A stretch of DNA of 64,000 nucleotides from Antedon mediterranea (Eukaryota; Animalia; Echinodermata): positions 7,869,812 to 7,933,811 of the forward strand of contig NC_092675.1 of assembly GCF_964355755.1 (NCBI RefSeq), written 5' to 3'. The translations under genes and the position numbers were made by a program. This document shows positions 8,165-62,130 of this stretch, one piece after another; within the stretch, counting starts at the first letter, position 1; every line of letters starts with the position of its first letter. The notes under the pieces are model-generated. The model was given only the letters and a program-made list of their open reading frames with translations, did no database searches and was not told the DNA's origin.

Positions 8165-10998
8165 ATGAGTTCAGCAGTTGCAAGCATTGAATGGCTGGAT
8201 CGATGTCCAATTGGAAACAAGCCTAGTCCAAGGTAAATTCATATGCTGACCATATTGTGCATGTTTCAATAATAACTTGTCATTCATAAACTTTGTCTCA
8301 TAATTGGCTTTGAATTTACATGCATGAGTGCATACATTTAAAAATAAAATGTCTATACATTTTCATAGTGGTAAATTTGTTCAAGAAAACATATTTTGAA
8401 ACCAAGATATTACCTTGAGTAGAGCTTAAACATGAATTAACTGTTAATATTGAAAGAGAAAGACAAAAAACAGTAATAACTAAAAACTAGTAAAACATCT
8501 AAAATGATGTAAAATATGGTAAAACTACTTGGTTTTGATGAATTATTATATCATATTTATCAGTGAATCATTTACACATTTCATATTTTTTATTTATGTA
8601 TTGCAGTGGATTGAGATTTATTCAGCTTTTAATTATAAAATATAAAATTGAAAGAAGAGTTAATTAAGTTAACTTTAATTTTTGTTTAAGTTGTTAAGCA
8701 GCTAGAGTGGATTGAAGTAAAGCAGTGTGGTAGCATCCCAGATTCAAGAGATGGCCATTCTCTAAGGTAACTTAAGAAATAAATTTAAATAAAAAATGAT
8801 AAAGAATAAATAATATAAAGCTTGGTCTACACTATAAAACTAGTTTTACAAAAAAAGTGTGATGTGCCCAAATATGGTGGTGATATTGGAAAAGCAGCAA
8901 CCACTTTTGGAAGATTTCGTGCTTGTGTATGGAACAACCACCATAACCTTACCATCAAATTGATGATACATTGCATTTGTCCTGTTATATTGCTCGGAGT
9001 CCTGGACATGCACCACGTATCGTCATCAGGAGAAAAGACTAAACTATTTTCACTTTCGCTGTCTGCGCTCTATCTTACTGTAGGTGTGCTTGTGTACCAA
9101 TAGTGTTGTGTTGTCAATTATTAAAATAATTTTCTATGGTGAACTGACTCGACCACGTGGACGGATGATCTTTTTTTTTTAATATTCCCACTGGTTCTTC
9201 TACCAGCAGAGTAGTTTATAAATCTAATAATTGCTGATGTTTTTTACTTTTTACTGTATAAAAATAATTTAACAAATCAATGAACCCAACTCATCCGTAG
9301 AAGAGAAGTACTTAGCTTAGTTAAATAATATTTTGGGCCTGAGGTTATCATCTGTCATGACTGGATTGGGACATATATATGCCCAAATATGGTAGTGATA
9401 TGACATCATCATGTCCATATATGGGCACATCACATTTTTTTTTGTCACATAACTTTTTTGATAGTGTTGACAGAGCTTAACAAATAATAAAGAATATTGA
9501 TAATATAATAAAGAATATTAAAAAAGAAAAGAAGAAATGATAGATCTGTATAAGACATAAATCATTTATTTTACATAACTTTAGTATACTTATCGCATAA
9601 AGTGTAATCTAAATATGAATTCATTCATGCACTTACTTTTGCAGTTCTATCGGCAGTGACTTGTACTTGCATGGTGGGAAAAACCACCCAGATGCGAAAA
9701 AATGTCTACCAGGAACCTTTAAATTTGACACAGGTATTGAAAAAAAAGATTTTCTATTCAAGAATTTTCTTGGTTAAATTGTAATGCTAATAAAATGATG
9801 ATATTATTACATAAATCCCCTAGTCTATACACCCAACATAAGCACCCAACACAACCATGATCCTGTCCAATCATAGTTGAAAATATATTATTGGGAAAAC
9901 TTTTATGGAAGACCAGATTTTCAAGTCAGTGGAGAATTACATGTACAGTACTTTCACTATTACTTTCTCTATAGTTTTACTGACCCCCTTTTTTTTTTTT
10001 TTTTCATTTATTTCGTCTCACTTATAACAAAAAAAACAAACAATAGAGAGAGACAGGATTCCCAAAAGCGAACTAAATCAAACCATCAAGTTTTGATTGT
10101 ACCTATTAACAATAAAATATCAATTTTGTCTCGATTTTCTTACTATAGTCAACCAGCACTGGGTCAAATGCGAAAGAAATGGACCTGAACCAATGACCTT
10201 GTGTCATGACACAGCAGTCGCTCGTGGCAACCTGTATGTTATTGGTGGAATAATACACGGTAAAGCTAGTAACAACATTTATCTGTTTCAGCCTTCGTCT
10301 TCAACTTGGACATTGTTGCATACGCATGGTGAAATTCCAACTCCGAGGTATTTCAAAATGTAGTAAATTCATTTAATTTTTTTATTTTCCACACATTGTA
10401 CAAATTAGAACAGATATTTATACTTTAGAAAAGAAAAAAAATACAAAGAGGACAATGTGTGAAAGGAGATAAAAATATGTAATAACTAGAGGGTACTCCG
10501 AGAGTACAAACCTCCGCCTACTGTAAAATTCCCCTACATAAAATGCCCCTGAATATTTTTTTTTTACATTTTTTTTATTAGTTCTAAGTGTAAATATGTT
10601 AACTGCACACTACAAAGTTGTGGATGACAGTGTGGTGTAATGGTTATGTATCCAGCCTCTCACAGTTGAGATCGCTGGTTCAAGTCCCACTGAGGTTTTT
10701 TTTTATTATTTTTTTATTTCTTTTTTTTTAGCTTTTTGTTGACCTTGATCTTTGACCCTGACCCTTCAAAATTTAACCACAATTATATGATGTGTCATTG
10801 ATCATTGTGACTAAGTTTTGTGAGAATCGGATAAAAACTGTGGTCTCTAGGCAGTAAAATAGTTTTTTGTTAGTTGTGACCTTGACCTATGACCTTTTCC
10901 CCTCAAATTCGAACTCGTCCAAGCTTTTGGGGCATAGATCATTGTTGCCAAATTTGGTGAGAATCGGATAAAAACTGTGGCCTCCAGGCTGTTCACAG

Positions 10999-14658: not shown

Positions 14659-17600
14659 TTAGGTTTTTACTTTCGTTTCAACTGCCAGATCTTTCTTTTC
14701 ATCGTATCTGGTTTCTTTTAATTCAACTGTCCCATTAAAACCATTGTTATAGTGTCCTCCCGACTCTACATCATTTTGTTCCATTTTCTTATCCTGGTCA
14801 TCTGATTGGTTTAAGATATCTTGCGACATGTGGTTGACAATCCCTGCACCAATTGAGTCTCCCTCTACGTTGACAACGGTGCGAAGACGATCTCTAAAAA
14901 GTATAAATACAGAATGTTGTGTACACTATCAACCAAGAATGGCAATTCTATTGACATCTTCAAACAGTTGCTGAAAACCTATCTATTTCGCATAGCATAT
15001 GAAATGATGTAATTTCTACCTGTTCGGTCTTAATATAATATAATATTATACAAATAATGAATGTTTATGAGTGCAATGGTACAAATAATGGCACGAGGTG
15101 AATGATGAAAGGTTATATCAACGAGGCAAAGCCGAGTTGATATAACCTTTCATCATTCACCAAGTGCCATTATTTGTACCATTACACGAATACAAAACAT
15201 TCATTATTTGTTTTATATAACATCTAGACGTTTTTTTTTCGTACACAAAAATGTTTCAAAAAGTACTATTTAACGATCGTTGAATAGTGCGTACTATTGC
15301 ACGCCATGTGACCCACATTCGTCCAATCAAATGACAGGAATTTATATAGGTGTTATATAAAACAATTTATATAGCGCACATATCCACTAAAAGTACTCAA
15401 GGCGCTAATACTTCATTAATACCATATGCCTCAGCAAAAAGGTATGATTTTAATGATTTTTTAAAAGAATTAATTGTATGGCAATGTCTAATCCATTCAG
15501 GAATGTCATTCCACAGACGCGGAGCATTAATAGAAAAAGCACGATCTCCAAATGAGTGATGAGATTTCGGTTGAAATAAAAGCAACTTATTGGATCGTAA
15601 ATTACATTTAGGAGAGTATAAGCCCAGCATATCAGTCACATGTAGCGCTTTAGAGAAATTTATTTTGTTAAGCGCAAAAGACAATTATTAGTCTTTTTTA
15701 CATTCAAATATCCCTGTGTTAAAGTAACGAGTATTGTTTTGTAATTTATGTACTTTTTTATTGATCCATAAAACATAGTAGCAGGGCTAATAAAAGACTA
15801 TATAACAACTACAGTAGTGTTTACATTCTGTTAAATCTTAATAGTATCTATTTATTGCGAATGATAAGGTTGATGATCTCTTCAGTAGCAGCAGTTCTAC
15901 TAAATAACAGATAAACTATTTATAAATCACATATATTTGTGTGTTAGGTCTGTGATGAAGCTTGTCGATTCTGCACACAATTCTTGTTACTGTATCTCCA
16001 TAATAATAATAAATATTCATAATTTGTCCAGTATTCTAATAATACAGTATCATATATTTATCACAACTTGTATTATTTTAGGTTAGGATATGCCTATGAT
16101 ACTGGGGTCACATTTGATCTGTATGTGACACTATAAATACAGGACAGATAATGCATACAGTATAACGAGAATCGGTCGGATAGATTGTAAATACTAGGTA
16201 ATTACTAGGCTCATGGAGGAAATATATTTCCTCCATGCTAGGCTTTAAGCTCTGTCTACAATATCAAACTTTATGGGACAACAAAACGTGATGTGCCTAT
16301 ATATGAACATGATGATGTCATATCACTACCATATTTGGGCATATCACTACCCTATTTGGAAACATCACACTTTTTTTGTCACTCTAGTTTGATAGTGTAG
16401 ATAGAGCTTTACTTACAAAATAAAATCAACTGCTAAAATCAGTGCAATGTCATTGGTTGGTAAGTTCACCGCTGTCAGAACAATCACCATTGTCACCAGA
16501 CCCGCTTGAGGAATTCCAGCAGCTCCAATACTAGCAAATGTAGCCGTCAAACTGATGGTGATGATCTGGCCAACGTTTAAAGGAATGTTATTTATTTGTG
16601 CAATGAAGATAGCCGCAACAGCCTCGTACAGTGCCGTGCCATCCATATTGATTGTTGCACCGATTGGAAGCATGAAGCGGGACACTCGTCTGTCGATTCC
16701 ATTCTTTTCTTCCAGACATCGTGTTGTCACGGGCAGGGTTGCAGAACTGAAAAGATTCCGAAAACGGAATTTGAAATAGGTACCAATTCTTTGCAACATT
16801 TGTTACACCATGGGCCTCTAATTTATAGGTTCATGAACACAAAATGTCAAGCTGATTCTTCCCTGAGCATATTAACGCTAAAATGTGGGACATTTTCATA
16901 CCAGAACTGTTTCACGCAAGCATTCATGTAACACGTTTTCGGGAATTGATTACTTCGTTTTTATAATGAAGGACTGCAGAAAACCTGTGAAGAACTCTTA
17001 CCTCGATGATGTTCCAAGAGCCGTCATGAAAGCCGAAGAAACATTGATAAGAAATGCATATGGATTCTTCCGTGTGAACACAAAGTACAGCAGAGGAAGG
17101 ATGATGAATCCGTGTATGAACAGACCAGCTACGACAGTTCCCATGTACGCGCCGAGTTTTGCAAATAATTCTCCCCAGTCTTCTACCTCGATCATACTTC
17201 CTGTTATCAGAAAAAGAATGCCAATTGGAGCATACCTGAAATTAAAATAAACAGAAGGTTATTGCGGCATTTCTATACCAAGGAATATAAATTAGTACTG
17301 GACATTTCACTTTTAAGTGAACAGGGAAGTTATACACTTTTCCGTCAAATTATCAATTCTTCTGGGATGCAAACACTTGAAAATTGTATCTTCATGCTAA
17401 AGTCTATACATACAACATTTTAATAATACATACCACATAATTACTGTTACTAATTTCATAATTGCTTCGTTAGTAGCACCAAAAAAATTGACGACAACTT
17501 TTCCATCTTCCCCAACACGAGCAATCGCTACACCAAATACTATAGCAAAGACAACAATACCAAGGATGTTCATGCTATCTGACATAACACCAACATATAG

Positions 17601-20600
17601 AGTTGCCGCTGTGGAGTTAGTATGATAAACGATGACGTAATCCATTCCCGTGTTGACGATCATTGCCATCGTCTTTTCAAGTTCGTGAACCTCTTTTGTA
17701 AGAGATGCTATCTGGTTAAGTTCTTCCAAATCACCAGTTAAAGGAGATGAGCTTAGAGTCATGAGTTCAATCATAATTATGTTCATTCTCTTTAAGATTG
17801 CATTTATGTCAGTCATGACGTCATAACTGTTTGCTTTTTCTATGTCAAGTAAGTAAAGTAAATTAACAGTCATGTGCATTGAACTCATTGTAAGATCATT
17901 TAGATTCAATGAACTTTTGATATCTATGACATGCATTGACGTCATAGTCATATTCATCATGATCGTCATGATTTCATTGATTTCAACAAATGACGTGTTC
18001 TTGCCGCTTTGTTCGATGACGTCAATCAGACTTCCACTGACGTCATTCACATCTCTCATTATTTGATTGATCTGATTATAATCGATCATGAAAAAGACCT
18101 CATTGATTCCATTCAGAGTTGAACTAAGAGCAACAGCTGAGTCCTGCATTGCTGTGGCAGGGACAGGCGACAACCCGACTAATCTAACCATCTCCCGCGC
18201 TGTTGAAACTAGTAAAAATGATAACTCTGTTGATTCGTTGCTAAGCATCTTCATCTCTGATTCGCTAACGAGATCATCACCGGTTAGGCCTATCTCAGTT
18301 AATTGCGTCTGCAAAAGGTCGCGTTTATCGGAAGTATGTTTCATAAGCAGATCCAGTGATGTGGTCGGTGTTAGAAGATCTTCTCTAACGTTATCTACAA
18401 ACACCAAACTCGAGTCAACCTCCTGCAGAAAGACATCCATGTCAGCTCGTACCTCCACATAAGACAAGCGACTGGAGTTAAAGTCTGCCATTTTCTTGCC
18501 AATGATCATCAAACTACCGTTAATGGCAGAAAGTGAAGATGCAACAGAAACACCAGAACTGATCATTAGGTTTGAAAGATCGTCAGAACTTACTGGTTCT
18601 ATGGCTTCTTCTTGCATTTCAGTTTTGTACTGGAAATATAACCATATTTTCTTTACAACATAGAGTCAATTATAATCATTATATGCGTGCTAGCTTAGTT
18701 GTGCATTGAACTTCTACACCAGGATGACTATCTCTTTTGAAAGAGTCTAAACCTTTTTAAAAACCTCCTATTTCAGAAGGCGTAAACCCCGTTATAAAAT
18801 CGGGAGATATTTATTTCATTGTGAAACATACAGTGATTAAATTATACCCATATATATAAGTTCTTAAAGTTATAAAATTCCCGATTTAGGAGCAGATCCT
18901 TTATCGAATCGAAAGCACAAGCTATGATCAACCAGGTCTACTTACCGTCCTGAAAGTTGCTTCAACCAGATTTGACGGAAACATGCTCCTAAAGATACAA
19001 CGAACACATTTCAATCAAAGATTTATTTATTTGACACATTTTCTAATTATTGCTATTTTACTCTATTTTTAACATTTTCTATATTATTTTAATTTTTTTT
19101 AAACACACAAATTACATTCTTCAATTCACTAAACAAAAGTTGTGACCGTTACGTCATGAGTTCGACCAGCTGCGGTTAATACGACTATCTTACAGTAACA
19201 TCTTTGTAAAATAATTGCATTCGAATCAATCGATGATTTTATCGTCTAATCGACATAAGATAAATACAATTAAGTATGTTTTTCGTTTACATTTCATCGG
19301 TTTATCGGTATTGCTATTGTGATATTTCTATCAGACTAACATGCTGCCGCCAAATGTCGTTTACGGAAACACAATGTTTACGTTAGATTATAATTCTATG
19401 GAAACATTACTATGTTGTATGTACAAACATGTACAAGGTTTGATTTTCGGTGATTCCCCCAAAATGTTTTAATAGTCAAAATATTTGGTTATTTGAATGT
19501 TTACAAACAAACACATTTTTTTAATAAGCAAGAACAAGATATTTTAAAGGTATATGGATAAAATTATGAATGGTATTTAATCGGTATAGAATCTACATAT
19601 TATTACTAAATTGGTCGCGTAATTTTACGTATCTCCTCCGCGCGCATCATCTAATTTCGACTACCACCACCATGTGCACTTTTTTTGTGTTGATTTCCGT
19701 AAGCAGCTGTTGTTTTATTATTCTAATACTTCACAATTCTATAAATAGCAATTTATATTTTATCATTGAAAAGTTTTACACTGCCGCCGACTGATTGAAA
19801 GAGTTCAACGTGCATGTCCCTCTCATGCACGTTGTCACTTTCTGATACGCATCCTAAATTAATATTCACACAGTACGATTTCTTTAGCGTCTTTTATTTT
19901 TGTTCCATATCCTGTATTGCTTTCATTTTTTAGCTTACAGATATTTCAAAGTGAAGGAATACTTCGTGTATAATAACATCAATGGCCGTAAATAGTTCCG
20001 AAATTTATTCTTGACAATTTTTTTTTTGTCAGAGTACTTTTATCAGGGAAGAGTGCGCTTTTATTATGCTTACTCATCCTATGCGAATTAGTATATAACC
20101 ACATATTAAGGCAGAAAAGGGTTACTGCTAGTATTTCTTATTTACTTTGATTGTTTAAATACCGTAAAGCTAACACTAATTGTACAAACGACGGGTAATT
20201 ATTTAAAAAGTGCGACAGGTCATAATTATTACAAAGTGCGACGTCTCAACAAAGTGCGACGGACAATTATTTAAAAAGTGCGACAGGTCATAATTATTAC
20301 AAAGTGCGACGGACAATTATTTAAAAAGTGCGACAGGTCATAATTATTGCCAATTGCGACGGCTCAGTTTATAATTACAAAATGCGACAACCCAACTTAT
20401 TATAAAGTGTGAAATCTCTAAGTCATATTAGTATACAGATCAACAGCACAGTTGTTAGAGCGACGTTCAGTTATCAAAGTTCCATTATAGTTACATTATA
20501 CTATAATAATTACACATTAACTCTAACGTGTATTGGGTGTTTACTATAAAATTAACAACGGCAAATATTGTTAACAAAATAAACATTTGTTTTTGTTTTA

Positions 20601-21450
20601 TTTTCACTCTTTTTTCCAATTTAATGTTCTATTTTATTTCTACCATGAAAACTTTTTAATAGATACTTGTGGAATATATCAACATGTTAAATCTAAGCAG
20701 AAATGTTGGAATATAGATGTGAAAAAAGAAGCACGACCTCAGCAATCGTTAATCGTTATTGCAATAGAAAATACAAAATGGAATTACTCCAGAAGACGGT
20801 TGTAGCATACGTGAAGACATTCCCAATTCACAGTTTCTGTTTGGAAACCCATGCACATACCACAATTAAGCCTTAATTTACTCTAACATTAAAAAAATAT
20901 AAGAGAGAGACTATTTTTGCACACCACCTATGCCCATTCTCTGAAAGTCGTCTTCTTAACATGAATAAAGTACACTAGCCTACCTTATGAGATCCATGAA
21001 GGCATAAGCTGTCCCAACAGACGCTTCCTCCTCTGAACTCTCACCAACATCTCCACTTATTTCACCAGGTCTTATCGTAAGCACCAACAAAATCCCGAGA
21101 AAAACGGCGATAATTGTTGTCGAAATGTAATAAACCACTGCCCTGATTCCCAGCTTTCCAGACATTGACGAATCCAACGATGCTAGGCTGGAAACCAAAC
21201 TTGAAAAAATCAAGGGTAGTATCATCATCTTTAACATGTTCATGAATATATCGCCAGGAAAGGATATGTAGTCAATTTGCTCTGGAGTAAAATCAAATAG
21301 TTTGCCGAATAACCAACCGAAAAAGAAACCGAGGATTACGGATGAAATCAACAGAATTAATAGAATATTTTCTTTGCTGATTTTGCACTGTTTCCCTTTT
21401 TCATCGTCGCTGTCTTTAAAGACATACTCATCTTTAGACCCGAGTGCCAT
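14659..21450 (-). CDS. SLC1 family excitatory amino acid (glutamate/aspartate) transporter, ~834 aa, with giant extracellular insert
   Basis: Exons 21450-20984, 18988-18946, 18629-17434, 17235-17002, 16746-16417, 14893-14659 (TAA), 2505 nt in frame. Motifs: [57 protein letters not shown] (HP1), [19 protein letters not shown] (TM7), [15 protein letters not shown] (HP2), [18 protein letters not shown] (TM8). NMDGT plus the TM8 Arg indicate acidic substrates, as in EAATs. The vertebrate paralogue cannot be assigned. Confidence 0.95.
15049..15364. repeat. Long palindromic dispersed repeat (family E), fuller copy
   Basis: ~160-bp near-perfect fold-back centred on CAACGAGGCAAAGCCGAGTTG, plus a second inverted pair TGTTTTATATAACATCTA / TAGGTGTTATATAAAACA. 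Confidence 0.8.
15397..15640 (-). mobile_element. L2/CR1-group LINE 3' end fragment
   Basis: [36 protein letters not shown]....[12 protein letters not shown], a characteristic L2-type ORF2 C-terminus. A smaller similar tail lies on + at ~14945-15000. Confidence 0.85.
16248..16408. mobile_element. MITE family B copy
   Basis: Both TIRs present, with TTA direct repeats on each side. Confidence 0.85.
20197..20412. repeat. Tandem AATTATTACAAAGTGCGAC-type repeat
   Basis: About 8 variants of ATTAT(T/A)(T/C)AAA(A)GTGCGAC in SLC1 intron 1. Confidence 0.75.
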
Positions 21451-28619: not shown

Positions 28620-29526
28620 TTAATCCACAACAATTCCCTTCTTCTTTAGTTCCTTTTTTTTTCTTTTTTCCTCTTTCTCAATGTCAGCTAACATCTGTTG
28701 GAACCTTGGGTTTCTTGGATCTATAGCATAACCCATCTTTTCTTTAGCTTCTTCTAGTAGCCTCTGTCGCTTTTCCTTTGCTGCTTCTTCCTCCGCAAAT
28801 TTCTCTAATTGTTTTTTCTTGAAATCTTTAATCAATGATGGCATCTTCTTCATGCCATCTTCAATTGCCTTGGCTCTAAAAAAAAGGAAGGAATTAAAAG
28901 GTGATAATCTACATATTAATTAGTATTCTAATTCCCTGGTCAAACCTAACATAAATGATTAGTAAAAAAATGCATTACCGGAATTATAAATACCGTGTAA
29001 TAAAAAATTAATACATCATACTCAATATCAATTATAATTTATAATAATTCTTGTACAACAATAACAATTGTTCAACAAAACAATGAAACTAAAACTTTGG
29101 TTTTTACTTTGCAAGTTCTTTTTGCTCTCTTTCTTGTTTTTCGATTAATAATTCGTCCTGCATTTGTTTCAGTGAGGGTTCAAATTCTAAATCCTCTTCA
29201 GTTCTGGCTTTTAACTCTTCTTTTGTGGGCCACATGATTCCTGGATCAATGCCCGATGAAGCACCTTCCTTCGCATACTTTCTTCGTATTAGACTTAATC
29301 GATAATTCGGGGTAGCCGTATATGTCCTAGTTTTAAGAAATTCATCTATTTCTTCAATCCCGTTTTCTGGAACCATTAACACGTTACTTCTACAAGTAAG
29401 GGGCCTAGCCGTCTCATGCCATGCAGTCTTGGCCCGCCGGAATGGCCCAACAACTGCGCTCGTCACCCTTCTTTGCTCCATATAAGTTCTTCTAGAAAGA
29501 ATATTCAAACATATGCACAATGTCAT
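28620..29526 (-). CDS. GADD45GIP1: GADD45GIP1/CRIF1 (mitoribosomal mL64), 224 aa
   Basis: Two exons, 29526-29108 and 28875-28620, in phase. Motifs KYAKEGASSGIDPGIMWPTKEEL...EPSLKQMQ and GYAIDPRNPRFQQMLADIEKEEKR match CRIF1. The basic N-terminus is compatible with a mitochondrial presequence. Confidence 0.92.
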
Positions 29527-30017
29527 ATTGTATGTTGGAAATATTTATTTTCCGAATATGAAAGCTTATAAAATACGACAGATTAGTCCCCAGACACTTT
29601 AGCTAGGCCTACAAAACAAATTTAGGTCTACACATGCTTTTCGAGTCGCCGTCAATCGATAGGTCAAAGTTGAACAATTTGTTTATTATGAGAGGGCGCT
29701 ATGTAGTGTAATTGTTGCCAGTTAATTAGTAGACTTTATGATTATTTTTTTATCATTTTTGCACAGTTACTATTGTCTAGCGTTGGTTTACCTTTACTGA
29801 ATATTAAAATATAAATGTGGATGACTATACATAATGAAAATGTATGTAAATATTATATTAATACATGAACATTAACTTTAAAATTATGTATAGGCCTACG
29901 CATTGACTGTCTGGCAAATCTTTGTTGTTCTTCCTCATTATGCATTATGTTGATTTCTGTGAACAGAGACGAACAGGTCGAGGGAGGAACTAAATTAATT
30001 ATACAAAATATATTAAA
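29527..30017. promoter_or_regulatory. Putative bidirectional promoter GADD45GIP1/TMEM59
   Basis: Divergent start codons separated by only 491 bp. Confidence 0.6.
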
Positions 30018-33000
30018 ATGGCTGAACTTGGCGACAAGAAAGGCCTTTTAATTGTTTATGCAACACTTATATTTATAATAAGTGTGCTTGTTAGGTCAAA
30101 TGCTGCTTCTGAATTGTTTGATTCTGTCCTAGACGACGTGAGCAGTTGCTCTGAGACCTGTGAAAACACATACCCAATGCACACATATCCAGAGGTACGT
30201 AGTCTTTTAGTAGGCCTACAACCAACAGTAAAGAGTACTTTGACCTTGTTTTGATTTCATATTTTTAAGTTGTTCACAATAAATATATATTATTGAACTA
30301 TGTTCTTTATTTAATTAGCAGGTTTCAAGAACAAATGAATGGTTTTATACTATTTTCAAATGCCTATCTATATATAGTATTACAAACTGTCATTAATAAT
30401 ATAAATAGTAATACATTTAAAGTAAACCCTGGAAATGAAAACAGCACTGTCGACTGATATATATATAGCCATAGAGATATTATAGTTATATAAGCCTAGA
30501 GGATAATCAACTGAACATTTGTGTTATTTTAAAACGGTTGTTATTATTTGGAATATAAAATAAAGTGCAAAATGATGCTCAGTTGTTTTCTAGTTTGACA
30601 TTATTTTATTATTTTTATTTGTTTTCTAATGATTTTCGCGATCGGATTTAATTTTTAGAATGATAATTTGGTAGCATGTGAACGTGGATGTCGTCTTTTA
30701 TCTATTGTTGAATTCGCCAATGAGGACCAAACAGATTTGAACAGCACATTAAAAACATGTGAAGGTGGTAAGTATAATTTAAGTTTAAAAGTTACATAAC
30801 TTCTATTTTCTACATAAACTGTATATTAGTATTGTAACAGAATAACCAAATCCAGAAAATAATATTTATTACATTAATTTAATATTTACCTAATAGCCTG
30901 CAATGAAGCATATGATACAAATGAAGATGGAAACTTTGCATGCAGCCTGGGATGCAAAAGTCAATTACCATACATCAGACAACTAAGAGAACAGGTACAA
31001 GATATGTCTTAATGATATAAGATTATCAGATCAGGGAGTTTTACCACTCCCTAATCAGATATTATTGATATCAGAATGGGGTCAGAGTCAGTATTATGGG
31101 AGGTAAAAACATGTAGTGTCTTTACACACTGTTTTACCCAACAACCTGTCCCTTAATAGGGTTGGCCATAGTTTGAAATTTATACCGTATATCCTCTTGT
31201 ATACAGTAATTCCACCTCTCTAAAACACAAAATGGGGCCGACATTGGGGGTGGGACTATACCCGAAAAAAGCCTGGTTCAGGGAAAAACAAATTATCAGT
31301 AAGCACTTCTTGTAAAACCTCATCGGAACTGGCTAAGAGAGGTCTACATCCATATCAAAAGTCAATACTGGAACTATACATGAGGATATGTATGTTTGTG
31401 AAATCAGGCATGATTAGAGGGTGGGATTGCACCCGAGGATATACAGAATTTTGTCTGGTTTATTTAGCAGGGAAGAGCCCCTCTAATACCAGTGTTCCTT
31501 GAATAGGGTTGTCCCAAAGACTGGCCCTACTTTAATTATATATTAAACTTGATCACTGCACATAACAAAAAGGCAGCGAAAAAAAAGGAATGAACAGGTG
31601 ACAAGCACCTCTATCCACATCCCCATTAAAATAGACATAAAAGTAACAATAGTATATATATTAGGTATTGATTGATTGATTAGATATTAAAAGGGTGAGG
31701 AGAAACATTTAATAATTTTTTATTTTTTATTTTATTAGTATGCAAACATGGAACCAGTCATTCATATGTTAACTCCGTTGCTGATGATGCAAAATATGTA
31801 CCATGAGGTTTTGGACAATGCTCATGGAATGATGATGAGTTCTTTTTCATTGTTCATGCAATCAGATGATGGAGTGGTCTATGTGTTTGAGTCACAACCA
31901 AAACTTGACACCTTTACTTATCAACCAAAATATGAAGACCAACCCTTAGGTACTGTAAACTTAAGGTTTAATTTAATTTTAAATAATAATTATTCACTAA
32001 TTACCCACATATTGTCAATTCCCTTGATATCTGTTTACTTATTTCATACTTGTAAACTGGTCCTTTTTAAACATTTTTTTAAGATTACTTTAGATGCAGT
32101 GGTTGAGGATGGTTTATATAGCAATATAGCAATTTAAATTGAATGAAATCAACCTCCTTCATTTCCTTCACACTTTTATTTATTCAGCACACTTTATTAA
32201 TTTACTAAAGGTATCAAATATTTAACCCTTTAAAACAGATTTGGACACTCTGGTGGACATGCCCTCATATGACAGCAGTTATTCCGGCAACACTGATTGG
32301 TTAACATGTGTCTCGTACCGTTCTGGACTCCCTGAATGGCTCATCTCTCTTATTTTGTTTTTGTCGTCTGCTTCCATGATCTGGCTTGCGTTTGCATCAT
32401 GTTCAACCAGTAAACCACACAGAGTTATTACTCCAAAGGTTTGTGAAAGTATTTTTTAATACTTTGATAGTCACTTATACTGTATCTTAAAAGCCTTGAT
32501 AGTATTGGTTGGAAGTAAAGAGGTTTCGCAACTCTACGAATATGATAATAAAAACGGATACGTCACACACACATATTCGTTTTCGTAAGCCAGTGAAAAT
32601 CTGTTTTGCATGGCAACGAAATATTGAGGGTGCCGTCCTAAATATGACTGGTGTAAATTTTTACGCGAAGCGCAGGTACGTGTTGCTTGGCTGCCTAGGC
32701 TTAACATAACATCAAAGCGAGTGAGGACTGCTATTTATCAAAATTGACCTGGCATTTTAGTAAATTACTTTCAATAAATCTATAATTATGTTATAATCAT
32801 AAATCATTCCTGATTCAAATGCAAAATAGATCAAAACCTATACTTGTTTTGTAGTTACGAATATGACTAGTTATAATTTTACAAACATGAAATTGGAATC
32901 AGCTAAAAAATTTCACAAATGTGTGACGTATCCGTTTTTATTATCATATTATTCATAAGGTTGCGAAACCACCCTAGTATTAAGCTCTGTCTACACTATC

Positions 33001-43900: not shown

Positions 43901-46900
43901 ATGGGGAACAACAGCTTGCTGAGATGTGCACAGAGAGTTTCTATTAACATGGATTACTTTATATTTTTAAACTATAACATACGGTAATAGCATATTTACG
44001 TTTTTTTAGACGATCGACGACCTAACCTTTACACGCATATTGCGTCGTCTGGAACCCGCCATGTGGAGTAAAATGTTTTCAGTATCACTATGACTTAACT
44101 AGTTCCTATGTCTATAGGCCTAGGTGTTGCAAATCGAGAGTTATCTAAAAAAAAAACTAACCTTAGGGTCATGTATTCCATCGATCTGTAAATACGACAT
44201 CTGTCCTGCTAAGAAGGCAGCCAAGTTAGCTGTGTAACTTGCGAAAAATATAACAGAAAATCCGCCCCACATATTTAATAAAGTTCTACTTGTCATACAC
44301 TTTGGTGGTTTTGTTCGTACAGTATGGCAAAATAATATCGCAAATGTTATATTTAAGGCAGATGGAAAACCAAATATATACTTTCTATTTCGGCCACCCG
44401 GATGAAGTCCATACGGACTGACCCATTCGAAGACCGTTATGGCAAATGATATAACAATGGCGGACATGAAAATAGTCATCCATACATATCCGTCTAATGG
44501 GGCAAGAAAGGCACCGAAAGTAAGCTCCCGTTTTTTCTTAGCAACCAACGCAGAAAAACCAGAATGGAAGAATGGCGCTGTGAAGTCTATGACCTCACTA
44601 CGTTCCAATGTTATACTGAAGGAAGAAATGGCAATATCTGCTTTTCCGTAGAGAAGATCTCCAACCATTCCATTCCAGCTGCCGTTCTCTAAAGCGCCAT
44701 GATTTTTATCTGCAACGAGATACAACTCATAGGTAATTTCTAGATCACGACTGATGTCGTTTAAAAGATCAACACAAAGTCCCAAACAACATCGTCTATT
44801 GGCGGTGGTGATGTTATCCTCTGACACGTGTGTCTTCAGTCTATGGATCGTTCTGCTAATATCCAGACGATCGTCATCCATTGTCGTTTCAATACACATT
44901 GCGCCAGTAACGCAGTCAAAGTCTTCAGAATCTGTTTCTGCGTAATACAAAAAAGGCTTTTCTACATTTGTAGCAACTAGAATACTATGAGTATCAATAC
45001 CAAATGGACGGTCTTTTTTGCCTGGCCATACTAGCGTATCAAGTATTAAGACTCCGTTATCCCATTGTCCAACACCTTTCCACTGTATGCTAGAATTGTT
45101 TTTTAAATCTGCCATTAAATTCAAAATACGATAAGACGCATCGGTTAGATCGCCATCTTGATCAAAATTCACATTTCCTGTAATTCCATTAAATGATGTC
45201 TCTAGTAATTCCCTTAACGATAAAAATGAAAAAGAACTTGAATTAGAAACTAAACTACCTAAAATATGAAATAAATGAACATATTTCCTAAGTGTTAGAC
45301 TAGTTTGAGTACCGTGTGTATCTGCTGCATTAGTAAGGGCATGTGGCGCAGTGTGTTGGACGTTCGACTACTGATCGTGAGATAGCGGATCGAATCCAAC
45401 TCTGTCGCATTGCTTGTTTCCTTAGGCAAGATACTTTACTTACGTTTGCCTCTCTCCACCCAGGTGTATAAATGGTTGCCCGGTTAGATCAAGACACAAC
45501 TTTGCGCCGATTACTAGCTGCATTATAGGAGTATACGTGTTTGATATAAAAATAATATTAGAGGTTTTACAACATTAGGCGCTATATATTTCCATAAAAA
45601 GAATAAATATCGTAAATTTTTAAACGAAGAAAAACATAGTTTATTAAATGTTGAATTTTCATAGTTCAATATTGCTGAGTTTTAAGAGTCATTTGGGCTT
45701 ATTGAATTACGTTATAATATTACTATCGTAACGTATGAGCATAATGCTATCTTAATTGACCTATTGTGAAGTTTGAGATTTGTTGTACGCTGGAGAATAG
45801 GAGAATTATGCGTATCTGGTGCCTGCGTTTCATGAAAAAGATTCGAATGTCTACTGATGTATACACATTGATTTCCATATATGATTGCATAGGCATTATG
45901 CGCATATCAATGCAGCGCATAATTCAGTTCTTAAAATAAAGACTGTTTCATTGGTGGTTATCTGCAAAACGTGAATAAAAAAAATGAAAATTGAGTGAGA
46001 AAGTTACGAAATATAGTAATATGACTAACTAATCGAAAGCTTCCTATAAGATGAATTGAAATATGTTATTATAAAATGTACTAGTAGGAATCCACTATAG
46101 TAAATTAATTGATAAAATCTTTATTACTTGGTAAAATGCTTCCAACGCATTTTTCATGTATACTTCTTTCTTATTCTTTTGTATGCAAAGTTTATTGATA
46201 TATTATGCGATGATTCATTATATTCCAAAATAAAAAGATGAATGTGATAACACTCATTCATCTTTTTATTTTGAAATATAATCAATAATCACATAATATA
46301 TCCATAGCAACAAAAAAAAGGCGAATCGTACAGATGATAGCAAACAAAAAAGTTGTTGTAGTTGTACAAAATTAAAGAAAAAAAAAGAGAGAATTTACAC
46401 TTTTTTAGAAACTGAAAATTGACTTTCTCATGAACTCATCAAACTGATGGAACATTATACATGCTAGCACTACAATTTGTAGGCTATTTCACCAGCAAAC
46501 GCAAGGAATTGTTATACCATACTTTCAATGATTAGTGCTCTTATTATACGTCCACAATTTTCAAGATTTCGTCCTGATAACATGCCTATTTATTTTCAGA
46601 AAAATCGATATATTGTGGACGTCACAACGATTATTAAAATCTCGAATTATCTGTATCTTCAACATGGGCCAAAATATTACATAGCACGTCCTCTGTCGCT
46701 CTCTGTAACTTAGAAAGTATTTCTGAACGCTAATTTATTTTTATTATTATGTATTTACCGATTTAAAAAAACAAACAAAACAACTTACCTATATAATACT
46801 ATACCATTGTTATTAGATCTGCCTGTGCTCACTACTGCTTCGTGGCAATCAATATTATTTAAACTAACATTTACCGTAGTAAGAGCTTTTGTCATAAGTG

Positions 46901-49900
46901 TTTTTATATCTTGAAAACTGTCATTTACATTTCCACGTTCTTGAAGCATTAATGATATTAGGCCTTCGGGGTACCGAACTAATATACTTTCATTGGAAGT
47001 TACTACTGACTCTGTTGCTATTAAAGCGTATCCGTTACTAAGAACATCAGTTTGTTTTGCAATTTCAAAAAGAACCGCTGCTTCTTCTGGAGTGCAATGA
47101 ATAATCACTACACGAATATTTTCAATTACTAATTGTCTCAATGCATTTACAACATCCTCTCCGTCCTCTTTGATTGTGAAGTAATCAACAAAATCCCAGA
47201 CGGGTGAAGACCTTGTTAAATTCCTAAGTTCTTCAACAAAAAGTTCGGTTGATGATGATCGACTACCAAGAAGTGCAAATCGATAGAGGGCGTAGCGTCG
47301 AAGAAGACTCAAAATGACCTCTGCTTGCTTAGCTTCAGACGTTGCAAAACGAAGAAATAAAGGATGGACTTCCTACAAAATAAAAGAAGATAATACTATT
47401 TAGTTGAGACTTGAACAAATCTACATTTTGTATTTGAAGTACTCCTGACGATTACGTATAAATGGCCATAGACAAACCATAGTTATTATTGATTGTAAGT
47501 GGAGCAGTAGACTTCAACAATGAAGTTTGCTCCTAAATGGAAGAAGAAGTTAAAAAGTGGTTGAAAGAATTTGGAAAATCATACTACACCAATTATGATG
47601 GTGATGATGATATATCAGTATAATATTAATGACCATAATTGATGTCCATAACAATAATGCATTGTAATGTAATGTTTATTGCTGCATATTAAAATACGGT
47701 ATATCGTATAGCCTACAGTAATACATTTCAATATTTCCATGTACCTTCTCCATATTTACGCTAAAAGAACGCCAAGCGATCTATTACCAGCGATCTATTA
47801 TCGACTGCATGATGCTAAATAAATCAGTGGCGGCGTCGAGATTTAACTAATTTTTTGTTGTATTTTTTATATTTGCGATATTGATTTTACTTCTAAATAA
47901 ACAAAATATTCACAATTACTATCGATATTGTAAATAGCATTAGCCAAAAATATATTTCAATATAGTTTGTCAGGCTCTGAACTATACATGTTGTAATGAA
48001 AGGTCATAAACAAGCAGCCTGCATTTTACGATCAGTAGTATAAACAGGTATTATTATAACTTGTTAAAAAATGTTCGTAATTGATTAAAGAACACTGTAT
48101 AAAATTATACTCTTTTCACTCTAGAATTTAACGACGTTCATAAGCTTAGTATGATCAGGGAGTTGTTATTATGATATACATTCCATTATCATTCGCAATA
48201 TGTAAATGTTGTTTCCAGTAATTATATTCTGCATACATATTAACATTGAAATGCAACAACAAAGTAATAAAGCAATTGTGCATTGCAAATAAGCAATATG
48301 TTTTAATGTGATATCACGGTTCTTTATGATGTAACAAGATGATTCAGATAATGTTATATTTGATCAAAATAGTACAGTCGACGTTCTTACTAATTTACTT
48401 TATGTTATCAAAAATACTAGTTAGAAAATGTTAGCATGTTTAAGATATAGTTCGCCTGCTTTGCTTGTTCATTTAAAATAGGCCTATCGCATTTGTTTTG
48501 GAAATCTTATTTTACCGTTGTCTTGATGTCTTTATAACATTTTTTTTTCGATCTAATTTTTGGTCCAACTGAAAACAACTATTGCACCATTGAAATGGCA
48601 TATTCAAGAACAAAAGTTGTAAAAATGATTTTGTTTAGGGGGACATTCTTTAAGGAAAATGATCACAATCGTCGCCGCCTGCAATAAACGATTTCACACG
48701 CAGAGAGCGAAAGCCGTAAACTTGCCTAGGTCGTCTTAGGCCCATGTTCTGTAGATAAACAATGAACTGTCGGATTTGACGACCAATGAAGCGTGGCGGG
48801 TGGTAACATTGCTATGTAGATTATGAGTAGGTGCTACGCATCAATAATTAAGATTATTAACAATAGCACATATGAATTCTCTAGAATCGTACTTTGCTTA
48901 TCATTATTAAGGTCGTACAAAAATACTATGGTGGAATAAGGAATTGTTATAAGAACAAAAATGATTGCGATTGAGTTTGACACTTATATAATAGTGAATA
49001 AAGTATAAAGAATACTCCCATGGCAAATGGATACTATACATCCAGGGTTAATCATTTGAAGAAGTACTTAACGAAGATCGTTAGAATTCGAGACTATAAA
49101 TTCTCCTGACTATTATATTTGTCAATGTGATTCTGCTAATGAGAAGGAATTTATAATATTCATCCTTGATATATGAAAATCCAATTACTTTTGTAAATGC
49201 TTTTGCTTCAAAAAATGTTAATATCGGCGTTATTGTTGAAGTTATCGCAGCACCAATTGGTGAGTGAACATGCACAGCTAGTAAACTCATTACTCTCAAT
49301 TTGTAAGTTTGAATTAACGTTGCTCCAATTGAACATAACTCACGTCCTTCCCGTGCACATTCATATGAAAATAGAAAATGTTAACAAACTACCAGTAAGC
49401 TGTTTAAAACATGAGGCCTCTTTATTATTTATATGCCATCAAATTCATAATTTAACCGGACAAATTCAGTACTATATTGGTTGAAATATGTGATTAATTG
49501 CTATTGTACTGAATTAAAAAATAAATACAATATTTAGGCCAATAGATAATAAACAACAATTAATTTATCTTACTACTGTATAATTTTTTATGATAGGTAA
49601 TTAACATCATCCATGTTAGTATTTATATTCTTATTATTTATTACCAAAAAAACCAAAAAAACAAAGACCACTAAAAGTTGGTAGGAATAAAAGGAAACTG
49701 AATACTTGTATTTCCCATTTGCCCAGAAGATAAACGATTATCATAAATATATCAAAAATTGTTGTCTGTTAAATTGCATTATTTGCTTGGCCTAGTACTT
49801 TTTTTTTGTACAGAAATTTAATGTGAAATTCGTTTAACAAAAGTGTAATAAGTGGGCATCCTCTGTCTTTTTCAAATCTTCTTTTAAAACCAAAATCTTT

Positions 49901-52900
49901 CGTTACGTTACTGTTTTTGATATTGTAACTCTGTGACGGAACGATGCCTGCTCTAATACAAAAAAAATCTACAGGTTCAATAATCATTGTTCATACTGAA
50001 ACGAATGTCATATAGTTATCATAAAATTAATTATTTTACTAGCAATATTTAAATATGTTTGTTGATTTTGAAAACGGACAATACTGTAAATCAATAATAA
50101 ACTGTTACGCTACTTCGTTTAGTCTGCCTCGCGATTGGTAGGCATACTAGCAGCAAAATATGATAACAATAGTCACACTGAATGGCATCTGCGGGCTGGC
50201 TCAAATTATGCAATATGCTTAAGTAGATGGTATGATAGAAGAAAACACAGGGGATGAAACTGAATCATACTAGGTATAACATTTCAACTAAATAGGCGGT
50301 TATTGTGTAAATAATTGCTTTATTGTAACACACATAGCTATATAAGAAACAGCAAATGAAAATAGTGCACATTTAATAACTGAAACACACCTCTGGGATT
50401 AAACACTTGTACTCTAGGTACCAAGGCCTCAGTATTTAGGGCTTGCAGTAGTATAGACGATTGGGAAATGTCTATACTAAGATAACAGTTATTGTTAGTA
50501 CGGTATTTAGTCGCCTCTAATCTAATGTATGTATAGATATTATTTCTTAAAAGATGTGTCTTTCATACATGTATCTTAGACAGTGAGGACATTTGAGTCG
50601 CTGCGTACCCACAGGCTAGGGAAAAAACACCCTACCCCACTCTTATCGGATTCTCGATGCTGTATCTCACACATAATAATTGTTAGCAGCAGTATCATTA
50701 GGCAAATTTCGTGATACAGTATCTCATGTGCATCGCATGTGATGCCTGTATCATAATTATATTAAGGATTAAACTTGTATATAATAGGTGTTAAGAACAC
50801 ATGACTCTGTATTACAGTAAGTCAGCTGTAGAGCATGAATCAGTGTTATTAACAGTATACAAGCTGAAGTTGTAACACAATATAAGTATCTGGGCAACAT
50901 GATTGATAATAAATTAAACTGGAACCCCAATGCTGATAAATTAGCTGCCAAATGTTACTAACGTCTTTATTGTTTAAGAAAAATGAATAAGTTTAATGTA
51001 GGCCTATGTAATGTTTTGATGAAACTGTGTTATGAATCTGTTATACAATCTGTACTCTGTCTTTGCTGCATTGTTTGGGGTAAAAGTATTACCACCAAAG
51101 CCAATTACAATAGACTGAATAGGGTAGTGAAGACAGCTAGCAAAATTTTAAACGTAAACTTAGGCTAAAACCCTTAAAAAAACATGTGCAATGATCTTGT
51201 AGGCCTAAATAAGAAAATTAAATCTATTATCGCTGATGAAACGCATGGAGAGATTATAGTTAATAAGTCTGGTAGATTAAGAATAATGCGTATTAAAACA
51301 ACTCGATTTAGGAATTCCTTTCTACCTTCAACAGTCAGTGTATTTAATAAAAACAAACCTATAGATAAGATAGAATTTTCATTGTTGGAACATTTTTGGA
51401 ATTTTGCAAGTGTTGTAAAACTTTTTTCTATCAATTAAGTGTATTCTTTTTCGCAACAAGAAGACAAATTTCATACTGTACTATGTTGGTTTGTATGACA
51501 ATAACAGAATTATTCCACTGAGTAATGTTGGTATCGATAACCAGCCTCATAGTCAAGTACAGTCCTACACACAGTCCTAATTTGTTGATTAATTTAGTTA
51601 TCATAGCAAATTGCCGTTTGTTTGCGACAAGGCAATCTTTCAAACAGCTATATTAAAATTACTATACACAGAACACACTGTTTGTAATGACGTTATTGAC
51701 TATTTTTACGCGCATAAAGTAATTATAATTTTTGTTAGATGCATGCTTTGTCCGCCAAAAGTAATTCATAATAAGGATGTCGGTAGGATTTCAAATGAAT
51801 ATATAAGCATTATTAACGAAAGAAATAACTTATTTTATTTCAGTTAATGGACAAAATATACACTTGAATTGGAGTGTGTCCCCAGAGTTTTTTTTTATTT
51901 AAATAAGCATAATCTACGACGCTGATGTGTTATTAAGACACTTTGCTGAAATTTAATAATAATGTGAATTTACAGTATTACATTTAACGGAAATAGACAA
52001 ACTCTAAACCCTTCAGCGAAATGTTGAATATTGTAAGATAGAACGTTTAAGTATGTGTTGCTACTGCATGCATCCCCATTGGTTATCAAACTGACCTGCA
52101 TTTTATAGGGTGGTTATAAACTACGGTAACTTTGAAAACCGCCATGGTAATGAGTATCTTCCTCGTGTATGTTAATGCACAAACGATCAAAATTAATAAT
52201 AATAATATAATAAGATATATGCAAAGAAGTTCACATTGTAGTCCATCTTAATTATCTTAAATACCAAAGGACTGCTGCCTATATTATCATATTATTCATT
52301 ATGTATTAATTATCTAATTAGGAAAATTGATTGGTTTCTATATGCTTAGGTAATAATAATTTAATATTTATATTTAATATTAAAATTGTGAATATTAGTA
52401 TATATAACAGACTATATACTGAATCGAATCTGCTAGCTAGTGCCCCAGATTCCTGTGTAACAGTGCCAAATTCATTATTTATCAAATCATTGAAAGTCAT
52501 ACCTTTACTATTCAAAATATTTTAATCAATAAAATTATTGTTGAATTATAGAGAGAAAAATATAGATTTTAAATTGCTAACCAATTTTTCAATTTTACTT
52601 AAAACGTCTGTTACTGAAAGCAACATGAAAAGGTATAACAACCAACGTTATTCATTTATTGAAAATGAAATCGATGAAAATTTCCCAGTATAGTTGGCCA
52701 TAAACTGTAATAACTTAAAATTTGCCGTTTCATATATTATTTATCTTTAGAATATTATAAATTATATTTGTATTTATAAATCGTCTGTAGAACTGTCACA
52801 GTTTATAGTAGCAACTATTTTATTCATTTCCTGAAAATGAAATCGACGAAAAGCACCAGTTTTGCTATTCATAAGCGTTAGCCCAAAAGCGGTAGCCCAT

Positions 52901-61415: not shown

Positions 61416-62130
61416 GTCAAATTGTACCTAGACATTGTCACTGGGTATCCCAATTTACGAGAAACTACAATCGCGTATTTTCCTGTACTTAAATATCCTG
61501 TTAAAAAAAGTCGGTCACCACATAACCATGTTAAATAAGTTCTCTTGTCGGTGTCTTTGAAGTCACATCATGCGATTTAAAAAAGACACCACGCTTCGTG
61601 TTCTTGCTTAAATAAATCTTTAAATCTATCGAACGAATAAATCACCATGTTTTGAAAAGTAATAAATATCGGAAAGAAGTCAAGCAAATAAAAATATAAT
61701 TTGTAAGGTATACGCGTCGTCAGAGATGCAGATAAATCGTAAACCCGTGCGGAGCATACAGTGACTATCGTCGTTATAAGAGCAACCCGTTGCGTTCTAT
61801 TTTCTCAATTACCAAACGCCCGCTAGCGGTAATAGTACAAACAGCAGCAGCAAACACTATCGTTTAAAAATTAGCCAAAGTGACAATTTCACTCTCACAA
61901 TTTAATAAACACGTAAATATGTGTACTATTAGTTCAATTTCCACATCACAGACACGTGACAGAATGAAATACAACAAAACCTCCTTAATATGCGTAATTA
62001 AAAGGCTTCCAATTTATGTTTCTGATAATTATTAATATATTCATATCATAAATACTGGTACGAGATGGAAATTGATATAAAAAGTACAAAGTACTAATGT
62101 ATTGGTAAGTAGGAAACGATAATGACAACA

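Follow-up and report, generated by a model that had tools for sequence, protein, structure and literature searches.

A predicted helical domain in the TM4b-4c loop of an EAAT-type glutamate transporter from Antedon mediterranea and other echinoderms

Our analysis of a 64,000-nucleotide stretch of the crinoid Antedon mediterranea (NC_092675.1, positions 7,869,812 to 7,933,811, hereafter the window) showed that an SLC1 gene on its minus strand encodes an 834-residue glutamate transporter of the EAAT type, in which the extracellular loop between transmembrane segments (TM) 4b and 4c spans 352 codons, and that a homologous long loop of 354-375 residues occurs in named records of 13 further species, from all five echinoderm classes. 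Among the extracellular parts of SLC1 transporters, the TM4b-4c loop is the only one specific to eukaryotes; what it does is poorly understood, and in human structures it is mostly disordered. The echinoderm loop is predicted to form a folded helical domain, and its main role may be that of a docking surface through which an extracellular partner is bound or the transporter anchored, a reading to which we give a probability of about 0.45.

The gene has six coding exons and five introns, all of them GT-AG. The exons, in window positions (HP, helical hairpin), are:

20984..21450, minus strand: exon 1, with the ATG at 21450; encodes TM1-TM4a; Pfam SDF (PF00375) E 6e-26
18946..18988, minus strand: exon 2, 43 nucleotides (nt), TM4b; equal in size to the 43-nt exon of human SLC1A1, A3, A5, A6 and A7
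17434..18629, minus strand: exon 3, 1196 nt; the entire TM4b-4c loop and TM4c-TM5; its counterpart is the 293-nt exon of human SLC1A3
17002..17235, minus strand: exon 4, 234 nt; TM6 and HP1 with its serine-rich motif
16417..16746, minus strand: exon 5, 330 nt; TM7 with NMDGT and YEAVA, HP2 and the start of TM8; equivalent to the vertebrate 195+135 exons; SDF E 1.6e-40
14659..14893, minus strand: exon 6; DRLRT of TM8, the C-terminal tail and the stop codon

The acceptor of exon 3 is an AG in phase 0 and its donor a GT in phase 2. The 352 open codons of the loop (17574-18629, minus strand) run from YKTE to GVMSDS; when the bases were shuffled 20,000 times this frame never stayed open, and the remaining five frames contain 10-43 stops. 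With a GC content of 0.39, exon 3 resembles the other exons (0.40-0.47) rather than the introns (0.30-0.37), and GC at third codon positions is 0.41 in the loop and 0.40 in the remaining coding sequence. Independent DNA contigs from public runs span the exon uninterrupted and without indels, the single loop variant listed in them (position 17847) is synonymous, and a search for tandem DNA repeats within exon 3 found none.

In supplement S5 of PMC2873418, the internal exons of human SLC1A3 measure 43, 293, 234 and 195+135 nt, compared with 43, 1196, 234 and 330 nt in Antedon, so that the net gain over the human loop exon (1196 vs 293 nt) is 903 nt, or 301 codons. The original prediction was of a 352-codon insert within a 1196-bp exon with correct flanking phases. 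The open stretch, the exon and the phases all held, but part of the 352 codons is ancestral loop: the two β-strands at the base and the last glycosylation sequon belong to an ordinary loop. The enlarged loop is growth within a homologous exon. The insert had also been described as Cys-free, acidic and amphipathic-helical with six named sequons, and a recount agreed: the loop is devoid of Cys, its 50 Asp/Glu outnumber 20 Lys/Arg (net charge -30), it contains 29 Met, its predicted helices are all amphipathic and on average too weakly hydrophobic to span the membrane, and the sequons NGS, NSS, NES, NTS, NMT and NST lie at loop positions 37, 51, 131, 211, 226 and 338.

Relatives were sought with the insert alone among 7,994 candidate proteins, with the full-length protein among the best 120 of 5,086 matches, and through cluster look-ups. 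The insert-only query gave one match among its candidates, from the crinoid Anneissia japonica, and insert-only word searches altogether returned matches from Anneissia and Acanthaster only. Over all searches, the long loop was found, besides Anneissia, in the sea urchins Lytechinus variegatus, L. pictus, Strongylocentrotus purpuratus, Diadema setosum and D. antillarum, the sea cucumbers Holothuria leucospilota and Apostichopus japonicus, the brittle star Amphiura filiformis, and the sea stars Asterias amurensis, A. rubens, Acanthaster planci and Patiria miniata. It is thus present in close and distant orthologues alike, a point on which the original prediction had made its case depend. Loop lengths were measured by a motif pattern that leaves unmatched proteins uncounted, giving a partial survey of animal SLC1 proteins; in it, 24 of 132 measured loops are 354-375 residues long (Antedon, 357 by the same measure), every one of them in echinoderm records or their clusters, and the other 108 are 30-124 residues long (median 57), so that no long loop was seen outside echinoderms within this sample.

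Urchin-, sea-cucumber- and brittle-star-like genomic open reading frames (ORFs) terminate at the exon 3 boundary seen in Antedon (IMW/VIMW), from which it appears that the domain lies in a single exon in these records too; sea-star ORFs break after LNRQ, which points to a later intron in sea stars. Anneissia, Strongylocentrotus and sea cucumbers carry at least two copies of the long-loop gene (pairs P0002/P0003, P0129/P0130, P0005/P0125 and P0164/P0174), although some pairs may be haplotigs. One sea-cucumber record, KAJ8040325.1 (P0005), appears to be two tandem genes merged by annotation. The Anneissia copy P0002 has a Q to D change in HP2, together with further core changes, and these may affect how it handles substrate.

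The two Anneissia loops (XP_033119814.1 and XP_033113919.1) are 66% and 68% identical to that of Antedon over 349 positions with 3 gap columns, values that fall between those of the membrane parts (84-92%) and of the C-terminal tail (18-19%), which serves as a control for free sequence; XP_033119814.1 keeps all six Antedon sequons at matching places. Between classes the loops are 19-27% identical and align over their full length, with BLASTP scores of 52-104 bits against no more than 25 for shuffled sequences (50 shuffles each). The sequons at positions 131 and 338 recur in 27 of 36 aligned rows, some of which are redundant. Each of 13 proteins has 4-7 sequons in the loop and a net loop charge of -20 to -31, and all but one of the 13 loops are Cys-free. 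Across the five classes, K46 and D63 are each conserved in 13/13 sequences, N195 in 13/14, N256 and D262 in 12/14 and Y259 in 11/14, and nine of the 38 most conserved loop positions fall in residues 17-33. As judged from these alignments, the loop domain is constrained.

A profile of nine loops run against 1.84 billion representative proteins gave 12 matches at E 0.001, of which 11 were the SLC1 loop itself. The twelfth, P0154 (143 residues, E 6.3e-5), is a weak coiled coil with a pairwise hhalign probability of 92.5% after selection from 1.84 billion; it resembles 33 unrelated coiled-coil Pfam families, all below threshold, and we set it aside as a probable heptad coincidence.

To place the gain of the domain, a midpoint-rooted tree was built from 29 transporter cores with the loop removed (P0019, P0023 and P0029 were left out as the loop-cutting pattern failed on them), from a sample that held two hemichordates and no amphioxus or tunicate. 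The 10 long-loop rows form one clade (support 96/91) whose order follows the class phylogeny and whose sister group is a pair of short-loop hemichordate proteins (100/98), from Glandiceps talaboti (P0016) and Ptychodera flava (P0017), which have the same motifs and, unlike the echinoderm proteins, an ordinary short loop with no trace of the domain. Short-loop crinoid paralogues fall outside the clade, and forcing them to group with the long-loop rows was rejected (p-AU 0.0026). Since the long-loop rows are one clade, sister to short-loop orthologues in hemichordates, the simplest reading of the tree is that the domain was gained once, in the echinoderm stem. No sign of an internal duplication was found between the two predicted lobes (hhalign probability 1%; best pair of sub-blocks 8.8%) or of a copy of the transporter core (0.1%). 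A short-loop SLC1 paralogue (XP_071951935.1, P0021) is probably located on the same chromosome as the long-loop gene.

An AlphaFold2 model of the loop domain, built with 36 aligned rows, contains 11 helices in two lobes, with a mean predicted local distance difference test (pLDDT) of 72 and a predicted template-modelling score (pTM) of 0.72; confidence is good over residues ~40-210 (mostly 79-97 in 51-200), moderate up to 330 and poor at both ends. The parts of the loop are:

18606..18626, minus strand: outgoing β-strand of the ancestral hairpin stalk (predicted from structure models and the EAAT2 hairpin in PMC9372063)
18477..18593, minus strand: conserved neck, loop residues 13-51, two helices; a candidate contact surface
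18000..18467, minus strand: predicted helical lobe A, residues ~55-210, five helices, highest confidence; D63 and F67 invariant
17619..17999, minus strand: predicted helical lobe B, residues ~211-337, four helices; P296 invariant and L241, N256, Y259 and D262 near-invariant
17586..17606, minus strand: returning β-strand of the ancestral hairpin stalk, directly past the NST sequon (17618-17610)
17673..18593, minus strand: 921-nt in-frame stretch GTAAGT...AAAAG, an intron in RefSeq XP_071953414.1 (307 residues)

When the Anneissia orthologue P0003 was modelled at full length, the domain lay between strands 171-181 and 510-520, and the core superposed on human EAAT3 (9p4x; TM-score 0.95 by target length, root-mean-square deviation (rmsd) 2.7) and EAAT2 (7xr4; TM-score 0.91). 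A folded and unrecognised domain had been anticipated, and both parts are supported: the domain is predicted to be helical rather than disordered, and it gave no Pfam family at threshold, no match in the ESM Atlas, no Foldseek match at E 0.001 in the PDB and viral libraries, and no match among PDB sequences, the profile giving only designed or generic coiled coils there (best E 0.00066). These blank sequence and fold searches do not establish a new fold. The best match of a lobe was the helical bundle of FTCD cyclodeaminase (1o5h; Z 13.3, rmsd 3.2, 149 residues aligned, 9% identity). Talin, designed bundles and other structures came within 1-2 Z units of it, a level that the tool itself rates as generic for helical bundles. 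The FTCD cyclodeaminase, the talin rod and the TTYH ectodomain each superpose on one lobe (Z 9-13, 116-150 residues), but identity is 3-9%, none of them covers both lobes well and there is no evidence of kinship. On the strength of the model, we are fairly confident that the domain is a folded helical bundle. The conserved residues 17-33 coincide with the part of the monomer model that is unsure, and they may become ordered by contact with the sister subunits.

Whether the domain reaches the protein depends on splicing, and here the public record of the species itself disagrees with our gene model. RefSeq XP_071953414.1 is letter for letter the window protein minus 307 loop residues; it matches the first 182 and the last 345 residues and treats the 921 nt from 18593 to 17673 as an in-frame intron, with the consensus donor GTAAGT at 18593. 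If real, this would be an exitron, spliced out of some or most transcripts so as to switch between a 527-residue ordinary EAAT, with both hairpin strands retained in a 45-residue loop, and the 834-residue capped form. The exact junction, the perfect donor and a length divisible by three would all suit such a switch, but its acceptor is weak, with 7 pyrimidines in 20 positions against 10-16 at the five real acceptors of the gene, and an AG is impossible at the aligned codon in every non-crinoid row and in Anneissia XP_033113919.1. The codon allows it only in Antedon and in XP_033119814.1, and the latter lacks the donor valine. Exon 3 moreover contains 66 in-frame GT/AG pairs that would yield a loop of normal length, four of them using the donor at 18593, so that a homology-guided predictor could invent such an intron, and no other short record of the long-loop clade was returned among the database matches and cluster look-ups. 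The splice in XP_071953414.1 is thus probably an artefact of prediction, an explanation we place well ahead of an exitron, which seems improbable on these sequence features.

Support for inclusion of the domain comes from sea cucumbers, where 2,592 coding nt in each of four Logan contigs (3033-4077 bp) encode a complete 863-residue long-loop protein. The genomic model belonging to that cluster is interrupted at the GTSS/S intron site, and in a related sea cucumber the genomic ORFs terminate at the ends of exons 1 and 3; as coding in the contigs runs through these intron sites, the best interpretation is that they are spliced transcripts with the domain retained. The contigs from five public Antedon runs have no joint inside 16420-19020 and cross introns, which makes them uninformative on splicing. 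The expectation that the loop is not spliced out agrees with the full proteins in the probable spliced contigs of sea cucumber and is contradicted by the public Antedon model. All told, we consider it highly probable that the domain is real and part of the main protein.

The rest of the transporter is intact, as had been claimed. Pfam SDF was found on three exon products (E 6.3e-26, 1.1e-08 and 1.6e-40), the P0003 model compared with PDB entries has the scaffold and transport domains with HP1 and HP2, the NMDGT motif and serine-rich HP1 are present, and all 15 long-loop proteins listed retain intact motifs in HP1, TM7, HP2 and TM8. Alignment to EAAT1 and EAAT3 chains places the arginine of DRxRT in TM8 and the glutamate of YEA in TM7 in Antedon and in all long-loop rows. 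The TM8 arginine binds the side-chain carboxylate of the substrate and the TM7 glutamate is the proton site; in the ASCT branch, which comprises neutral amino-acid exchangers, Cys or Thr replaces the arginine and Gln the glutamate. Membership of that branch can be rejected, as Antedon keeps both residues and its scores are lower against ASCT chains (397-430 bits) than against EAAT chains (467-515 bits). So can membership of SLC1A8 or SLC1A9, which are vertebrate lineages with changed last-exon sizes and loop exons of 208-223 + 100 nt (PMC2873418); no large loop exon was present in the rows considered from supplement S5 of that article.

The closest parallels are with vertebrate EAAT1-5 (SLC1A3, A2, A1, A6 and A7), which share SDF, the core fold, the motifs [32 protein letters not shown] and DRxRT, the 43 / loop / 234 / 195+135 exon pattern and a glycosylated loop on a β-hairpin at TM4b-4c (PMC9372063). 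They differ in the loop itself, which in EAAT2 has ~58 residues (Cys184-Asn241) with a disordered distal part, against 352 residues and a predicted 11-helix domain in Antedon, and on the core tree the Antedon protein has no one-to-one orthology with any vertebrate EAAT subtype. TM8 reads NVEGD in Antedon and NVLGD in the EAAT1/3 rows, a difference not tied to the domain since short-loop hemichordate and crinoid proteins also carry NVEGD. Because all core motifs are intact, uptake of acidic amino acids is expected, presumably as Na+-coupled transport of glutamate and aspartate by the elevator mechanism of the family, and by analogy the protein would assemble as a homotrimer. EAATs in general couple uptake to Na+/H+ co-transport and K+ counter-transport and conduct an uncoupled anion current. 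A protein that has lost transport and whose sole role is in adhesion or as a surface receptor would account for a large ectodomain, for the duplications in crinoid, urchin and sea cucumber and for the changed HP2 of one Anneissia copy; it is very unlikely given that the core is 69-92% identical across classes and that the substrate, sodium and proton motifs are all kept.

We propose that the three helical domains of a trimer would stand above the outer bowl as a glycosylated crown, each joined to the scaffold domain by its predicted hairpin stalk, with the conserved neck packed against the two sister copies. Seated on the static scaffold, the domain need not move during transport and could be large without blocking the elevator, and it may anchor the transporter to the matrix or to the surface of an adjacent cell, or else bring in a regulator. 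The conserved sequons at 131 and 338 fit an extracellular location. In PMC9372063, the EAAT2 loop is a β-hairpin that protrudes from the scaffold with a disordered, glycosylated tip, and is proposed to associate with extracellular or luminal proteins. ASCT2 (SLC1A5) is alike in fold and in the position of its loop (region C), and its complexes with syncytin-1 and suppressyn (8ouh, 8oui) are among the fold matches, but region C is short, at ~22 residues, and syncytin-1 binding does not require the distal part of it (PMC8220723). The original prediction overstated the precedent in calling this loop the established docking site for syncytin-1, since deletion of its protruding part did not abolish the interaction (PMC8220723). 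A bolder form of the docking proposal, which we regard as rather unlikely, is a receptor or adhesion crown that gates or positions glutamate uptake, making the protein a transporter-receptor hybrid since the origin of echinoderms, possibly in an echinoderm-specific tissue.

Besides the RefSeq model and its consensus donor, several points weigh against a docking role. Support from spliced transcripts is confined to sea cucumber; the full-length model has a pTM of only 0.49, with low confidence in the connectors (179-202 and 494-511), which leaves the placement of the domain undefined; and no partner, expression site or fold relative pointing to a function emerged from the searches made here. 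With a tree length of 7.85 against 1.80, the loop has also evolved ~4.4 times faster than the core, and it is only 19-27% identical between classes; a surface that engages a single conserved partner would be expected to be better conserved. Such fast yet gap-poor evolution, like the 4-7 sequons of every loop, would suit a glycosylated cap with no specific partner that shields the bowl from proteases, toxins or viral attachment proteins or is required for folding and surface delivery. In ASCT2, protein level depends on this loop, which has also been considered a possible hindrance to access by viral Env (PMC8220723), and the EAAT2 N206S mutation hampers surface localisation (PMC9372063). A shield of this kind would not need an 11-helix fold conserved over the age of the phylum, a fixed length and invariant residues, and short-loop SLC1 paralogues (P0020, P0021) function in the same animals, so that we think it unlikely.

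Polar residues (K46, D63, N195, N256, Y259 and D262) that are invariant or nearly so despite ~25% identity raise the further possibility of a sensor or lid, in which the domain would bind a small molecule, ion or lipid and alter bowl access or transport rate, as in a transceptor. Lobe A superposes on ligand-binding bundles, namely 1o5h, TTYH2 (7rtu, Z 9.3) and the McpZ sensor (8f7n, Z 8.7), but at 3-14% identity and with Z values generic for helical bundles; the conserved residues could equally be structural contacts between helices, and the scaffold that carries the domain moves little during transport in this family. We therefore hold such a sensor to be a doubtful, though not negligible, alternative to the docking surface. 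An electrostatic role in concentrating cations was set aside, as by our reasoning the ionic strength of seawater would screen the charge, and a link to the skeleton or to mutable connective tissue was considered and no evidence for it was found.

The echinoderm-wide long-loop variant is apparently undescribed: a full-text literature search that included six accession numbers, and from which subscription journals and supplements were generally absent, returned no description of the subfamily or of its domain. The accessible text of PMC2873418 covers vertebrate SLC1 only, without the words loop or extracellular; that of PMC12588293 describes glutamatergic neurons in the juvenile urchin, with no mention there of EAAT or SLC1; and that of PMC12189403 names an urchin transcript SLC1A2, which is not linkable to an accession, its first supplement having no SLC1A entry. 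Databases label the long-loop proteins as ordinary EAAT-like or uncharacterised, and with the RefSeq model dropping the domain altogether, annotation conceals it. A predicted folded domain of 35 kDa, present throughout a phylum, would constitute a natural experiment on what this loop can do, would offer a rigid handle for cryo-electron microscopy and would be a molecular character dating to the echinoderm stem.

Elsewhere in the window, ~23 kb from the transporter gene, lies an ionotropic glutamate receptor gene (44141-61427, minus strand; Lig_chan-Glu_bd, Lig_chan and ANF_receptor), which we take from its motifs to be NMDA GluN3-like. An exon of a GADD45GIP1/CRIF1-like gene (29104-29544, minus strand; CR6_interact) and one of a TMEM59-like gene (31739-32137, plus strand; BSMAP) were also found. 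In human, SLC1A6, GADD45GIP1, TMEM59L and GRIN3B all map to 19p13, and SLC1A7 maps close to TMEM59 on 1p32; the grouping in the window may be an old conserved linkage. Intron 5 of the transporter gene contains high-copy repeats (~15040-15530 and 16245-16411) with contig depths of 10^5-10^6; the segment 15397-15684, which has no Pfam match, presumably corresponds to the 3' end of a LINE-type element. A short tandem array of period 24-26/50 lies in intron 1 (20249-20389), and an exon of a Kelch-repeat protein is at 10097-10363 on the plus strand.

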